Shown: positions 27,520-31,286, counted from the first letter of the stretch. The stretch is 32,000 nucleotides of DNA from Candidatus Helarchaeota ASGARD archaeon Hel_GB_B (GCA_005191425.1 SUPR01000006.1:31371-63370); one strand, 5' to 3'. Translations and numbers: made by a program. Notes: a model not told the origin generated them from the letters alone.

Positions 27520-27798
27520 ATGTTGGATAAAATTTTTGGTAATAATAGTGTAATTTTAATACTTAATACATTTCTTAAGAAAGAAAATCGTGAAAAATGG
27601 CTTAATGTACGAGAAATTGGAAGACGTTCAGGTATATCATCTGGAACAGTTTCAAGAAGAATTAATGAATTGGTAGAAAATGGTGTTTTAATAGAAGAAA
27701 ACCCTTCAGAATATAGAAGAATTTTTAAATTAAATATTCAAAACCCATATGTGCCTATTTTAATAAATTTTTTTGATCAATTATGCGAAATAGAATAA
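27520..27798 (+). CDS. Winged HTH transcriptional regulator
   Basis: LNVREIGRRSGISSGTVSRRINELVENGVL HTH followed by a wing. Confidence 0.85.
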   Translation: MLDKIFGNNSVILILNTFLKKENREKWLNVREIGRRSGISSGTVSRRINELVENGVLIEENPSEYRRIFKLNIQNPYVPILINFFDQLCEIE

Positions 27799-28090: not shown

Positions 28091-28564
28091 ATGGAAATGA
28101 GAAAATTAATAGATTTTCTGAATTTTGTTGTAGTTGCATATAATGAGGCGCTAGAAAATGTTGGTCTAGATTCGCAACTTATTAATGCTCAAATGGCCAG
28201 AGCATTCAAAGAAAAAGCTGCACATATAATTCAAGATGATTTTGCCTTAGATATAACAGGTGATAATATTCAAGATATTATTAAATCATTTAGTGAAAGA
28301 ATTAAAGAAACAGGAATTTGTCAAAAGACTGAGATTATTGAGATAAGCGATACAAATTTAACTTTAAAAACAGGGGATAGCATTCTCAATCAAGCAGATA
28401 AAATACTATTAAGAGATAGGCCTAACGATTATATACCAGCTAGTCCGATTATTTCAATGTTAAGCTCATTTCTCGAAGAGAAAACAGGAAAAAATTGTAT
28501 AATACAAAAATATGAATTCATTCCGGAAGAAAATTCTTCTCAATTCACAATAACATTGGAGTGA
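28091..28564 (+). CDS. V4R/Bet3(TRAPP)-fold-like hypothetical protein
   Basis: Apparent helix-rich N-half, then IIKSFSERIKETGIC..TEII...LTLKTGDS, PASPIISMLSSFLEEKTG and a terminal strand QFTITL, which recalls V4R topology. ATG at 28091 follows GGTGAT at 28081. The fold call is inference. Confidence 0.5.
   Translation: MEMRKLIDFLNFVVVAYNEALENVGLDSQLINAQMARAFKEKAAHIIQDDFALDITGDNIQDIIKSFSERIKETGICQKTEIIEISDTNLTLKTGDSILNQADKILLRDRPNDYIPASPIISMLSSFLEEKTGKNCIIQKYEFIPEENSSQFTITLE
28558..28564 (+). promoter_or_regulatory. Shine-Dalgarno-like site GGAGTGA for the Cys4 miniprotein, overlapping the upstream stop codon
   Basis: GGAGTGA lies 6 nt before ATG 28571. Confidence 0.6.
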
Positions 28565-28570
28565 TGTGAA

Positions 28571-28699
28571 ATGGGAAATTGTTTGGATTGTAAATTTGTA
28601 GGAACAAAAAATTCGAATGGACAAGTATGGTGTGAAAAAAAGAAAATCTATGTTAATATTGATTCACAATCCTCTTGTAATGATTTTGAAAAGAAGTAA
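28571..28699 (+). CDS. 42-aa Cys4 miniprotein (not in ORF track)
   Basis: MGNCLDCKFVGTKNSNGQVWCEKKKIYVNIDSQSSCNDFEKK: CxxC-x13-C-x14-C. It has an RBS and fills the gap between two operon genes almost exactly. Confidence 0.8.
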   Translation: MGNCLDCKFVGTKNSNGQVWCEKKKIYVNIDSQSSCNDFEKK

Positions 28700-28710
28700 A
28701 TGTGATGAAA

Positions 28711-29076
28711 ATGAGTGCAAAATCTGAAAAATTAATTAAAATTTTGAAAGATTTGGAAAAGGAAAGTGTTATAGAAGGAAGTGCCATAGTTTCACCGAGA
28801 GGACAGGTTTTTGCTAGCGCATTACATTCAGATGCAGATGAAAAAGCTATTGCTGCGATGGCAGCAGCTTTAGGCTCAGTTGGTGCTAAAGTGAGTAATA
28901 CCTTAGGGGCTGGAAAACTAAATCAAATGGTATTAAATGGTACAGATAAATTAATTCTAATGCATACAATGAAAAATGCAGTATTAATTACTATGGCACC
29001 TAGCGATGCTAAAGAGGGATTACTACAATTTGAAATTGAACAAGCAATAAACAAAATAAAAATGACTCTTGGATAA
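28711..29076 (+). CDS. Roadblock/LC7 (MglB-like) protein 1
   Basis: L.KILKDL...IEGSAIVSPRGQVFASAL...AIAAMAAAL...L..GKLNQM.LNG...EGLLQFEIEQA: canonical roadblock pattern. Alternative starts at 28702 and 28705. Confidence 0.92.
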   Translation: MSAKSEKLIKILKDLEKESVIEGSAIVSPRGQVFASALHSDADEKAIAAMAAALGSVGAKVSNTLGAGKLNQMVLNGTDKLILMHTMKNAVLITMAPSDAKEGLLQFEIEQAINKIKMTLG

Positions 29077-29085
29077 ATTTACAAA

Positions 29086-29113
29086 TTTTCTTTTTATTTT
29101 TTATTTTTTATTT
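29086..29113 (+). terminator. Oligo-T tract between Roadblock 1 and the GTPase (possible archaeal terminator)
   Basis: TTTTCTTTTTATTTTTTATTTTTTATTT begins 10 nt after the stop codon. Confidence 0.35.
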
Positions 29114-29129
29114 GAGTAGGTAAAATAAA

Positions 29130-29786
29130 ATGGTTATTAAAAAAGGAAAAACTTATGATTATAAGATTTATGTATGTGGGTATTTTCAAGCAGGGAAAAC
29201 TACTTTAATTCATTCTCTGGATCCAAACGCTATGTCAATAGAAAAAAAGTTACGGGAATTATATTATGGAAAAGAATCTTCAACAACAGTTGGATTTGAT
29301 TTAGGACATCTTGTTTGGGCACGACCAAGAGAAAATACAGATGGTATTTTAATGAGTTGGTTTGAATTTGAAAAAGAACGTGATGAATATAAAGATTGGA
29401 TCTGTAAACTTATTGAATTAAAGGGTAGTCCTGGACAATTACATTTTAAAGATATGCGAAATATTGTAAGTAAAGGAAGTGATGGCATATTGTTTGTAAT
29501 TGATAGTTCAGATCCTGGATCAATAGGATATGCTTTAACATTAATTGAAGAATCTCGTTGTTTTTTAGGCAAATCTATTCCACTAGTTGTGTTAGCAAAT
29601 AAACAAGACCTAGAAATTGCTCTCCCCCCTGAAAAAGTTTCAGACCTCATAAAATTTGAAACATTCGGAGGATCAGCAAAAAATAATTTTGGAGTAAAAG
29701 AAGCTCTTATTCGATTATTAAGAATAATAGTAAAAGAAATTAAACAAGATTATCAAAACTATTTAATAAAAGAGGAGATTCAATGA
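29130..29786 (+). CDS. Small GTPase, MglA/CvnD-like
   Basis: G1 GYFQAGKT, switch I STTVGFDLG, G3 GSPGQ (no DxxG Asp, as in the MglA family), G4 NKQD, G5 SAK. Confidence 0.92.
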   Translation: MVIKKGKTYDYKIYVCGYFQAGKTTLIHSLDPNAMSIEKKLRELYYGKESSTTVGFDLGHLVWARPRENTDGILMSWFEFEKERDEYKDWICKLIELKGSPGQLHFKDMRNIVSKGSDGILFVIDSSDPGSIGYALTLIEESRCFLGKSIPLVVLANKQDLEIALPPEKVSDLIKFETFGGSAKNNFGVKEALIRLLRIIVKEIKQDYQNYLIKEEIQ

Positions 29787-30223
29787 TATCTGAAAAACCT
29801 TTACAAAAATTTTTAAATGAATTAAAAATAAATAGTGGTATTTCAAGGTCAATTCTAATAACAGAAGATGGACTTTTAATAACCAGAGATGATGAAAATA
29901 GTAATTCAAATGATCTTATGCAAAATATGGAAATTGGAGCAATTACAGCCGGCATATTATCAATGTCAGAACGATTAGTCGATCTTCTCACTAAACAAAA
30001 ATTAAATCAAATTTTAATTAAAACAGAACTTGATAGTGAAGAAAATGGGTTAACAACTATTATTACCTTGGTCTATAATAATATAATTTTGTTAGTTTTT
30101 TTTCCATCTAAATTAAATGTTGGTCTGATATTATTTGAAATAGAGGAAACTAAACAAAAAATATCTGATTATTTAAAGAATCAAAAAGGAGATTTTATAT
30201 TAAATCCAGAGAGTGTATTATAA
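29783..30223 (+). CDS. Roadblock/LC7 protein 2
   Basis: SILITEDGLLI...IGAITAGILSMSERL..LL..QKLNQILIK...LNVGLILFEI. ATGA overlap with the GTPase stop indicates translational coupling. Confidence 0.88.
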   Translation: MISEKPLQKFLNELKINSGISRSILITEDGLLITRDDENSNSNDLMQNMEIGAITAGILSMSERLVDLLTKQKLNQILIKTELDSEENGLTTIITLVYNNIILLVFFPSKLNVGLILFEIEETKQKISDYLKNQKGDFILNPESVL

Positions 30224-30224
30224 A

Positions 30225-30782
30225 ATGATGAAGAATCACAAAAAGTTTAATTCTAAATTTAATAAATACAATTCAAATGAAAATCGACATATCGCTCTAA
30301 CAAAAATATTATCAGAATTGGGTAATAAGGAAAATATATCTGCTTGCCTAATAATTGATGAGAACGGATTATTAGTATCAGAGTTTATTAATGATTCAAT
30401 AAATAAAGACATACTTACAGTATTTTCATCATCACTAAATATTAATTTGAATAAATTTAAAGGTAATCTTAATTTAGCAGACATTAATTTTTTAATGTTA
30501 AATACAAAAAATGGAATAATATTTTTGAAAGAAATTCCACTTAAAAAGCATAAAAGAAGATTTTTATTGAGTATATTTTTCAAAAAAAGCAATAATAATT
30601 TCGAAAAAAGTAATATAAAATCACTGAAAATTCATTATAGATTTTTGGAATATCTATATAAATTGTTTAGATTAGAATATATTTTCAAAGATCATTATTT
30701 TAATGGAACATATCTTAATAATAAGATATTAAAAGAAATAGAAAATGTAATTTTTAAAATTCAATTTATTTTCAATCAATAA
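30225..30782 (+). CDS. Divergent Roadblock-like protein 3 with a long insertion
   Basis: LTKILSEL...ISACLIIDENGLLVSE...L.L.DINFLMLNTKNG.IF roadblock core. ATG lies 1 nt after the Roadblock 2 stop (the track starts at GTG 30213). Confidence 0.7.
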   Translation: MMKNHKKFNSKFNKYNSNENRHIALTKILSELGNKENISACLIIDENGLLVSEFINDSINKDILTVFSSSLNINLNKFKGNLNLADINFLMLNTKNGIIFLKEIPLKKHKRRFLLSIFFKKSNNNFEKSNIKSLKIHYRFLEYLYKLFRLEYIFKDHYFNGTYLNNKILKEIENVIFKIQFIFNQ

Positions 30783-30868
30783 AGTAATTTCAAAAAGATA
30801 AGACAGGAAATGGGTCTATTAAAAGGTAATTTTAAATGGAAAGGTTTTAATATGAAAATGGAAGATGA

Positions 30869-30897
30869 AAGATAAGACCATTTTATCTTCTTTTTTT
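30869..30897 (+). terminator. Weak hairpin plus T7 tract downstream of the cluster
   Basis: AAGATAA-gaccatt-TTATCTT (7-bp AT-rich stem) followed by C and TTTTTTT. Confidence 0.3.
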
Positions 30898-31286
30898 CAA
30901 TTTAATTAATAATCCCCCTCCCTCCAACCCCTTAACTAGGTTTTATCCATCAAATTCCATTTTTTATTTTTTTATTTATTTATTAATAGAATAAAGTTAA
31001 ATGAAAACTTTTTAGAAAATTTAAACAATAAAAACAACTCATAATAAGAAATAGATTATAATATAATATATATAATTTAGTTATTCTGTATTTTTAAATC
31101 AAATAAAGGTTATTTAATTTATGAAATGCCATACATAAATTTCCATTTAAAATTTTTATAAAAAGTATTGAATTAGATTTATAAAGAATTTTGTTAATAT
31201 TTTAGATAAATCAGATTTTTAAAAATTAAATTTCCAAATTTTATAGTATTAAAAATCATATATTTAGATTTAGGACGGCGATTTAA

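Follow-up and report, generated by a model that had tools for sequence, protein, structure and literature searches.

Asgard archaeal genomes encode dozens of small GTPases, Roadblock, longin and TRAPPC3-like proteins, and the question raised by the locus described here is which of these belong together and in what kind of system. The locus occupies positions 28091-30782 of a 32,000-nucleotide (nt) stretch of DNA, hereafter the window, from Candidatus Helarchaeota archaeon Hel_GB_B (GCA_005191425.1, SUPR01000006.1:31371-63370). The source metagenome-assembled genome (MAG) is 3.5 Mb in size and 94% complete, and the proteins closest to its own carry Helarchaeota or Promethearchaeota labels. The locus comprises six open reading frames (ORFs), O1 to O6, all on the + strand, which an earlier note on this DNA had taken for a candidate proto-Ragulator/TRAPP-like signalling complex. 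Our analysis indicates that the six genes form a conserved module, one that names six candidate partners, among them an overlooked miniprotein and a member of a family of "hypothetical" Bet3-fold proteins. The reading that we favour, and hold to be reasonably probable, is that the module encodes an Asgard-specific sensory switch in which an MglA-type GTPase works with a heteromeric Roadblock platform. The genes are arranged as follows.

28091-28564, + strand: O1, 157 amino acids (aa), modelled V4R/Bet3 (TRAPPC3) fold
28571-28699, + strand: O2, 42-aa cysteine miniprotein, 6-nt gap from O1
28711-29076, + strand: O3, 121 aa, Roadblock/LC7 paralog A, 11-nt gap from O2
29077-29129, + strand: O3-O4 spacer, 53 nt, T-rich, the only sizeable gap in the operon
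29130-29786, + strand: O4, 218 aa, putative MglA-type small GTPase, 53-nt gap from O3
29783-30223, + strand: O5, 146 aa, Roadblock/LC7 paralog B, ATGA overlap with O4
30225-30782, + strand: O6, 185 aa, divergent Roadblock paralog C, 1-nt gap from O5

The ORF coordinates agree with the same-strand packing first described for these genes (gaps of 6, 11 and 53 nt, an ATGA overlap and a 1-nt gap), and the O3 start codon, an ATG at 28711, fits the family N-terminus MSAK. The G + C content rises from ~19% in the flanks to 28-30% across the six genes. Four metagenome runs from vents or sediment yielded contigs covering this stretch, and the indels listed for them all lie upstream of O1.

Family profiles of O1 and O4 were scanned across 301 Asgard genomes, and the ORFs of 20 loci plus one metagenome contig were scored with hidden Markov models (HMMs) of the six families. 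The exact O1>O2>O3>O4>O5>O6 order was recovered in 14 further loci among these 21, from Thorarchaeota, Lokiarchaeia and a Helarchaeota-like contig. The gene-neighbourhood comparison therefore bears out a conserved multi-gene module that is present in at least two Asgard classes. The loci also vary: six of the 14 collinear ones bear an additional O2 paralog on the upstream side of O1, two O5-type Roadblocks are encoded in the Harpocratesius locus, one Thorarchaeota locus is without O5, and one locus holds O1 and O2 only. A wider contig scan, run with over-specific patterns, returned two loci, both from Helarchaeota. Other genes in the window, which encode a MarR-like helix-turn-helix (HTH) protein, a DUF7347 winged-HTH protein, an SCP2 protein and a CCG/4Fe-4S protein, do not accompany the module at any of the other loci compared, and the borders of the module are thus those of the six genes. 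The O3-O4 junction is conserved as well, with a spacer of 46-67 nt in 14/14 collinear relatives. In the spacers of L040, L043, L044 and L050 a clear inverted repeat precedes a Shine-Dalgarno-like GGAGG, and the window spacer consists of T runs; the spacer may act as an attenuator, terminator or promoter inside the operon and in this way set the stoichiometry of the products.

What, then, is the GTPase encoded by O4? Pfam assigns it to Arf (3.7e-8) and Ras (1.7e-6), both over cutoffs. Among 16 family members the G1 motif is GxxxxGK[TS], G4 is NKQD and G5 is SAK-like. The G2 region contains an invariant T52-T53 pair with no adjacent Arg, and the G3 motif, G99-x-P101-G102-Q103, is invariant and without Asp, its second position being S, V, A or C and not T. 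The AlphaFold 2 (AF2) model is confident (predicted local distance difference test (pLDDT) score of 87.1) and shows a single G domain with an insert of ~25 residues, also of high model confidence, between β2 and β3. The exhaustive aligner VIA placed Thermus MglA (3t12/3t1q) at the top of its matches, with a Z score of 21.1, a root mean square deviation (rmsd) of 2.1 over 158 residues and 29% identity. MglA groups 2-5 have been defined by a GTPGQ G3 motif and by a Thr that replaces the Arg finger beside the G2 Thr (Wuichet and Sogaard-Andersen 2015, PMC4316618), and surveys of Asgard GTPases recognise a group under the name "MglA2-5" (bioRxiv 10.1101/2024.02.28.582541). O4 has the Asp-less G3, the Thr in place of the Arg finger and the coupling to Roadblock genes of these groups, and this coupling, with O3 upstream and O5 and O6 downstream, is conserved. 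Because of these motifs and this gene context, O4 appears to be MglA-type in the style of groups 2-5, which upholds the earlier assignment, although the class is not a clean one. The C-terminal half of O4 gives higher scores with Arf-type proteins.

Database labels for these GTPases vary. Relatives of O4 are called "ADP-ribosylation factor-like" at NCBI and "SRP receptor beta" at JGI, and in the locus of Candidatus Harpocratesius repetitus the GTPase is labelled "50S ribosome-binding GTPase" and O1 "hypothetical protein". RecA matches of O4 in the PDB were discarded as artefacts of concatenated constructs.

The three genes around O4 that the earlier note had described as distinct Roadblock paralogs were confirmed as such by Pfam, hhalign and PDB profile matches. 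Against Pfam Robl_LC7 (PF03259, cutoff 23 bits), O3 scored 37.3 bits (2.2e-9) and O5, which has an invariant Asp-Gly pair, 28.3 bits (1.4e-6), while O6 fell under the cutoff with 21.5 bits. The O6 family (alignment A5) aligned with the O3 family (alignment A6) in hhalign with 97.2% probability (E 4.5e-11), its profile matched the PDB Roadblock entries 9jue (1.6e-7) and 7f8f (2.7e-5), and an alignment of 15 O6 homologues shows a Roadblock domain whose last helix is preceded by an insertion. For the O5 family the corresponding hhalign match to the O3 family was 98.0% (E 2.6e-13), and its profile found 7f8m (1.9e-11), CvnB5 (2.6e-3) and MglB (3.7e-3) in the PDB; O3 itself matched 7f8m at 5.5e-11. 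The window proteins are at most ~31% identical to one another pairwise, as measured in partial alignments, and the mean column identity within the families is 67% for O3, the most conserved, 47% for O5 and 28% for O6. Judged from their sequences, O3, O5 and O6 represent distinct families of long standing and did not arise by recent duplication.

O1, at the head of the operon, gave no match in Pfam and NCBIfam scans, and the V4R family PF02830 matched neither O1 nor five of its relatives at E values up to 1. A search among 1.84 billion proteins yielded 34 cluster representatives at E ≤0.001, and the named homologues are all "hypothetical protein" entries from Loki-, Hel-, Frey- and Baldr-archaeal MAGs. 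A 1494-aa match from the representative search turned out to be an annexin-repeat protein and was set aside as spurious. The AF2 model of O1, built from an 8-sequence alignment (pLDDT 74.5), has the topology HHH-EE-HH-EE. When this model was compared with the PDB by Foldseek, the top matches were TRAPP core subunits (7b6d_G, with E 1e-4, and Naegleria TRAPPC3), and PoxR/MopR V4R sensors and H-NOX came after them. VIA aligned the model with Thor-TRAPPC3 (7yh2; Z 10.1, rmsd 3.9, 145 residues aligned), Bet3-TPC6B (2cfh; Z 10.0), PoxR (5fru; Z 9.6), YslB (Z 9.6) and the MJ1460 V4R protein (2oso; Z 8.1). A structure-atlas search found a cluster with PF02830 V4R on 46% of its members (TM score 0.65), and the best rows of that search, at TM scores of 0.70-0.74, belong to other Pfam families or to none. 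The V4R/Bet3 fold, put forward earlier as putative, is thus borne out by the model, in particular by the matches to 7yh2, 2cfh and 7b6d_G. Two of the outcomes that the earlier note listed as counting against it, a gene order lost in relatives and the lack of a V4R/Bet3 structural match for O1, were accordingly not observed. Because the Z values for TRAPPC3/Bet3, PoxR and YslB are tied, the modelled fold shows no preference for the eukaryotic branch.

At the level of sequence the separation is clearer. The O1 family profile (alignment A3, 36 sequences) found no TRAPP or Thor-TRAPPC3 chain in the PDB at E values up to 10, and O1 therefore represents a separate family of the V4R/Bet3 fold. The same profile, when run among longer proteins as a Rosetta-stone test, found no fused forms of O1, a negative result that is weak as evidence. 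In the A3 alignment, Cys is present at position 97 in 33/36 sequences, at 118 in 32/36 and at 150 in 14/36. The window O1 has Ser at all three positions, and among its closest relatives, too, these positions are Ser or Thr; a Cys-based metal site of the kind found in Thor-TRAPPC3 and PoxR is therefore missing from the window O1. Thor-TRAPPC3 holds zinc through four Cys residues, and in mouse TRAPPC3 a Ser-Asn hydrogen bond is found instead (Tran et al. 2024, PMC10933270). The window O1 may be a parallel to this loss of the Cys site in the mouse protein.

The gene for O2 lies directly 3′ of the O1 gene in 21/21 loci, one of which is without the GTPase part. Homologues of O2 are 38-44 aa long, with one of 77 aa, and O2 has no Pfam match. 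Across the 21 homologues C7, C21, C36, G11, K23 and Y27 are invariant, and D6 and W20 are found in at least 90%. The designation "Cys4 miniprotein" holds for the window copy, which has four Cys residues, but not for the family, which keeps only C7, C21 and C36; the first Cys of the window O2 is Ser in most homologues. Consistent with this, the four conserved metal-binding Cys expected of a zinc ribbon or rubredoxin-like protein were not found among the 21 homologues. Protein-atlas features suggested DUF6472 for O2 with a score of 0.91, and this assignment was dropped as it had no HMM support.

The O2 gene is often missed by gene callers and is uncalled on two JGI contigs. In the closed genome of Candidatus Harpocratesius repetitus (Lokiarchaeia) the O2 peptide (L047:1405-1530) is recorded only from Logan and not from NCBI. 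Six Thorarchaeota loci (L032-L036 and L042) contain a second O2-type gene of 38-41 aa, 46-50% identical to the window O2 and located ~250-300 nt upstream of O1, so that two miniprotein genes flank O1 in these loci.

Do O1 and O2 interact? A prediction of the O1-O2 complex with zinc included gave a median score of 0.52 compared to 0.17 for the best control. This level was reached by 58/80 solved complexes and by 2/110 mismatched pairs; it nevertheless constitutes weak support, as complex scores of 0.60 or lower prove wrong more frequently than right unless the prior is strong. Custom alignments and the zinc ligand fall outside the calibration of the score. The runs agree in at least 95% of contacts, with a partner pLDDT of at least 80. 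Because of this prediction and the adjacency of the two genes in all 21 loci, we rate O1-O2 binding as likely but unproven. A model whereby O2 supplies cysteines in trans to a Cys-less O1 was rejected as a family rule, because O2 is retained whether O1 carries Cys or Ser, and the fourth O2 Cys does not track the Cys state of O1.

One distant Freyarchaeia relative of O1 (L072:3425-3910) lies loosely near a small GTPase gene and two Roadblock genes. This relative and one atlas cluster carry the precomputed, unconfirmed Pfam label PF27323 (RdxA_C, "rubredoxin C-terminal domain"). If bacterial proteins fuse rubredoxin to the PF27323 domain, they would parallel the O2 and O1 pair.

That O1 is functionally a part of the GTPase switch is argued most strongly by related modules. 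In genomes with no O1 match, O4-family genes are found in a sister module that consists of a head gene followed by RoblA, the GTPase, RoblB, RoblC and a second RoblA, giving four Roadblocks. In three Thorarchaeota loci (L059:2397-5489, L064:2453-5507 and L066:2199-5249), all without an O2-like miniprotein, the head of this sister module is a canonical V4R+XylR_N protein (PF02830, 7e-10 to 1.4e-8) that is related to the phenol-sensor domains of MopR and PoxR. A Baldrarchaeia locus shows yet another order, namely GTPase, Roadblock, O1-like, Roadblock, O1-like. From the sister modules and the Baldrarchaeia locus we conclude that the link between V4R-fold proteins and Roadblock-GTPase genes arose or persisted several times, and it is this recurrence that ties O1 to the switch. 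Six Thorarchaeota loci of the O1-type module have a gene for a PAS histidine kinase directly after the third Roadblock gene (L034:3980-5931, L036:3768-5654, L042:3930-5090, L045:3447-5441, L050:1032-2270 and L033:100-1527; HATPase_c 1e-11 to 5e-19), and in L034 the next gene after the kinase encodes a 185-aa MarR-type HTH protein. Beside a Loki copy of the GTPase-Roadblock genes, at L063:4558-5118, a gene encodes a protein of 186 aa in which the Cys-rich motif C-W-x-[FY]-K-K-C-G-R-E occurs twice and which has no Pfam family.

How might such a switch work? O4, a catalytically equipped small GTPase, would stand at the centre as the G protein. By analogy with MglB and CvnB, O3, O5 and O6 most likely form homodimers as well as heterodimers that bind to O4, and the presence of three or four distinct Roadblock paralogs points to mixed dimers, for example RoblB/RoblC plus RoblA. 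These dimers would set the rate of GTP hydrolysis or nucleotide exchange by O4, as MglA-MglB and the conservons suggest. The fold of O1 and the context of the O1-O2 pair point to a role as an input or regulatory head that couples a signal to the Roadblock platform. In relatives this head probably has a metal site and a ligand cavity, and in those with Cys-bearing O1 the proposed signal is a small hydrophobic ligand or a metal; in the clade of the window the Cys ligands of O1 have given way to Ser. The output in some Thorarchaeota would probably pass through the kinase and the MarR-type regulator. A further step, that all six proteins assemble into one stable particle in which an O2-capped Bet3-fold dimer sits on a mixed Roadblock platform and controls nucleotide exchange on O4, we consider unlikely. 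If true, this particle would be a prokaryotic complex sharing the architectural logic of TRAPP and Ragulator, and the placing of a Bet3-fold protein and a Roadblock/longin platform on a small GTPase would predate eukaryotes, having first served an MglA-type switch.

Several findings weigh against the switch that we favour. Both families are patchy, with O1 in 29/301 and O4 in 49/301 Asgard genomes. In three complete Loki loci (L037, L046 and L048) the order is O1>O2>O3>O5>O6 and the GTPase gene is divergent just upstream, which means that strict co-transcription does not hold everywhere; L039 and L041, further Loki loci that are cut by contig ends, also have a flipped GTPase as judged by tblastn. 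The case for MglA is narrowed by the structure search for O4, where Arf6 and Rab4 fall within 1 Z unit of MglA, and by its family profile, which matches the Asgard ArfR protein GerdArfR1 (8oun) at 1.6e-13 and ARF1 at 7e-12 in the PDB compared to 2.5e-9 for MglA. A distant Freyarchaeia relative of O1 has neither GTPase nor Roadblock neighbours. Finally, a metal-dependent sensor role of O1 in the window organism appears doubtful, since its sequence lacks the Cys ligands. With Ser in this clade at the Cys-ligand positions of its relatives, and with O2 belonging to a three-Cys family, the metal- or redox-sensing input that had been proposed for the complex is weakened.

Could these points be better explained in another way? 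The simplest proposal, that the locus contains a plain MglA-MglB pair and that the other four genes are unrelated neighbours or redundant duplicates, would fit both the common prokaryotic pattern of an MglA gene with one or two coupled MglB genes (PMC4316618) and the conservation of O3 far above that of O5 and O6. It is, however, very improbable given the synteny: order and orientation of all six genes are preserved in 14 other loci while the flanks change, the three Roadblocks are distinct orthologous families that are each retained, and O1 and O2 stay attached in L037, L046 and L048, where the GTPase gene has moved. The kinase genes of Thorarchaeota raise another prospect, whereby the GTPase and Roadblocks work, as in a conservon, with a histidine kinase and a DNA-binding protein encoded elsewhere, to give a transcriptional output. 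Six loci with the kinase, the MarR-type gene of L034, the match of the O5 profile to CvnB5 and the placement of conservon GTPases in MglA group 2 (PMC4316618) are all in keeping with this. The window has its own MarR-like winged-helix gene (27520-27798, + strand, 92 aa), 290 nt upstream of O1, the product of which gives a marginal match (E 0.008) to the Thorarchaeota HTH protein. Yet no kinase gene is located in or beside the window module, other Thorarchaeota loci as well as the Loki loci are without the kinase, none of the loci analysed showed a DUF742/CvnC-like protein, and the flanking genes of the window are not conserved with the module. We judge a conservon-like arrangement to be improbable for the window on this balance.

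The proposal with which the locus was first introduced, that the Bet3-fold protein and the Roadblocks are a guanine nucleotide exchange factor or scaffold and the direct forerunner of eukaryotic TRAPP or Ragulator, draws on the fold of O1, which matches Thor-TRAPPC3 and Bet3-TPC6B and has a TRAPP core subunit as its top Foldseek match, and on the absence of a Cys metal site from the window O1, as in mouse TRAPPC3 (PMC10933270). Several Roadblocks in one operon recall the five Roadblock-fold subunits of Ragulator, and the profile of the O6 family gives a weak match to LAMTOR2 (E 0.07-0.36). Other observations point elsewhere. PoxR and YslB tie with Bet3 in the structural comparison, a sequence search with the O1 family profile yields no TRAPP protein, and the head of related modules is a plainly bacterial-type V4R+XylR_N protein. 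No longin-domain subunit is present in the module, where the partners are Roadblocks, and O4 has the Asp-less MglA G3 and not Rab or Rag motifs, and is without the C-terminal Roadblock domain of Rag proteins. We therefore regard direct ancestry as quite unlikely and retain the "proto-Ragulator/TRAPP" of the earlier note as an analogy only. The sensory MglA-type switch with a mixed Roadblock platform remains the reading that we prefer.

On the 3′ side of O6 the window continues with ~500 nt of non-coding, very A + T-rich DNA (30783-31286). Near 30914-30931 this region contains a lone C-rich tract, which is unusual in a stretch of ~20% G + C.

In MK-D1, GTPase genes are generally not in operons with Roadblock, longin or TRAPPC3 genes, and the lack of operons makes the matching of GTPases to regulators hard (Tran et al. 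2024, PMC10933270); the window module, in contrast to this pattern, is such an operon. Operon analysis of Loki GTPases was named as an open question by Dey et al. 2016. The Liu et al. 2020 preprint describes ESCRT and LAMTOR1-like/Rab-like/DENN Asgard operons, and the six-gene module is not among them. The six-gene operon is likewise not described in Tran et al. 2024, and gene neighbourhoods are discussed neither in the ArfR preprint nor in the Asgard Arf paper. Relative to the Asgard proteins solved by Tran et al. 2024 (PMC10933270; 7yh2, 7yh1 and 7f8m), O1 has the modelled fold of Thor-TRAPPC3, and O3 and O5 are related in sequence to the solved Roadblocks. Unlike Thor-TRAPPC3 (7yh2), to which it has no detectable sequence relation, the window O1 is without the Cys4 zinc site.

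Compared with TRAPP core and Ragulator, the module has a similar list of parts at the level of fold, namely a Bet3-fold protein, Roadblock-fold platform subunits and a small GTPase. It differs in that the GTPase appears to be of MglA and not Rab or Rag type, and in lacking longin subunits, a LAMTOR1-like anchor and a C-terminal Roadblock domain of the Rag type; our comparison of the window module with TRAPP and Ragulator found no evidence of direct descent. An actinobacterial conservon consists of a kinase, a Roadblock protein, CvnC and an MglA-group-2 GTPase (PMC4316618). Conservons (CvnA-D), like the mycobacterial mfp operon, share with our module an operon that joins an MglA-family GTPase, one or more Roadblocks and a sensory component, and the Thorarchaeota versions of the module likewise add a PAS histidine kinase and, in one locus, a MarR-type protein. 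The window module has no kinase and no CvnC/DUF742 homologue, and has instead a V4R-like sensor fold and multiple Roadblocks. With MglA-MglB of groups 2-5 the module shares the Asp-less GxPGQ G3, the Thr-Thr pair in G2 and the adjoining Roadblock/MglB-like genes, and the best structural matches of O4 are MglA chains of MglA-MglB complexes. However, MglA-MglB has one or two Roadblocks, whereas the Asgard module has three, and elsewhere four, distinct paralogs, together with a fixed V4R/Bet3-fold protein, a three-Cys miniprotein and an insert of ~25 residues in the GTPase. The module thus ties Asgard systems to bacterial MglA/MglB and conservon signalling, and this link warns that not every Roadblock or Bet3-fold gene should be taken for a precursor of the trafficking machinery.

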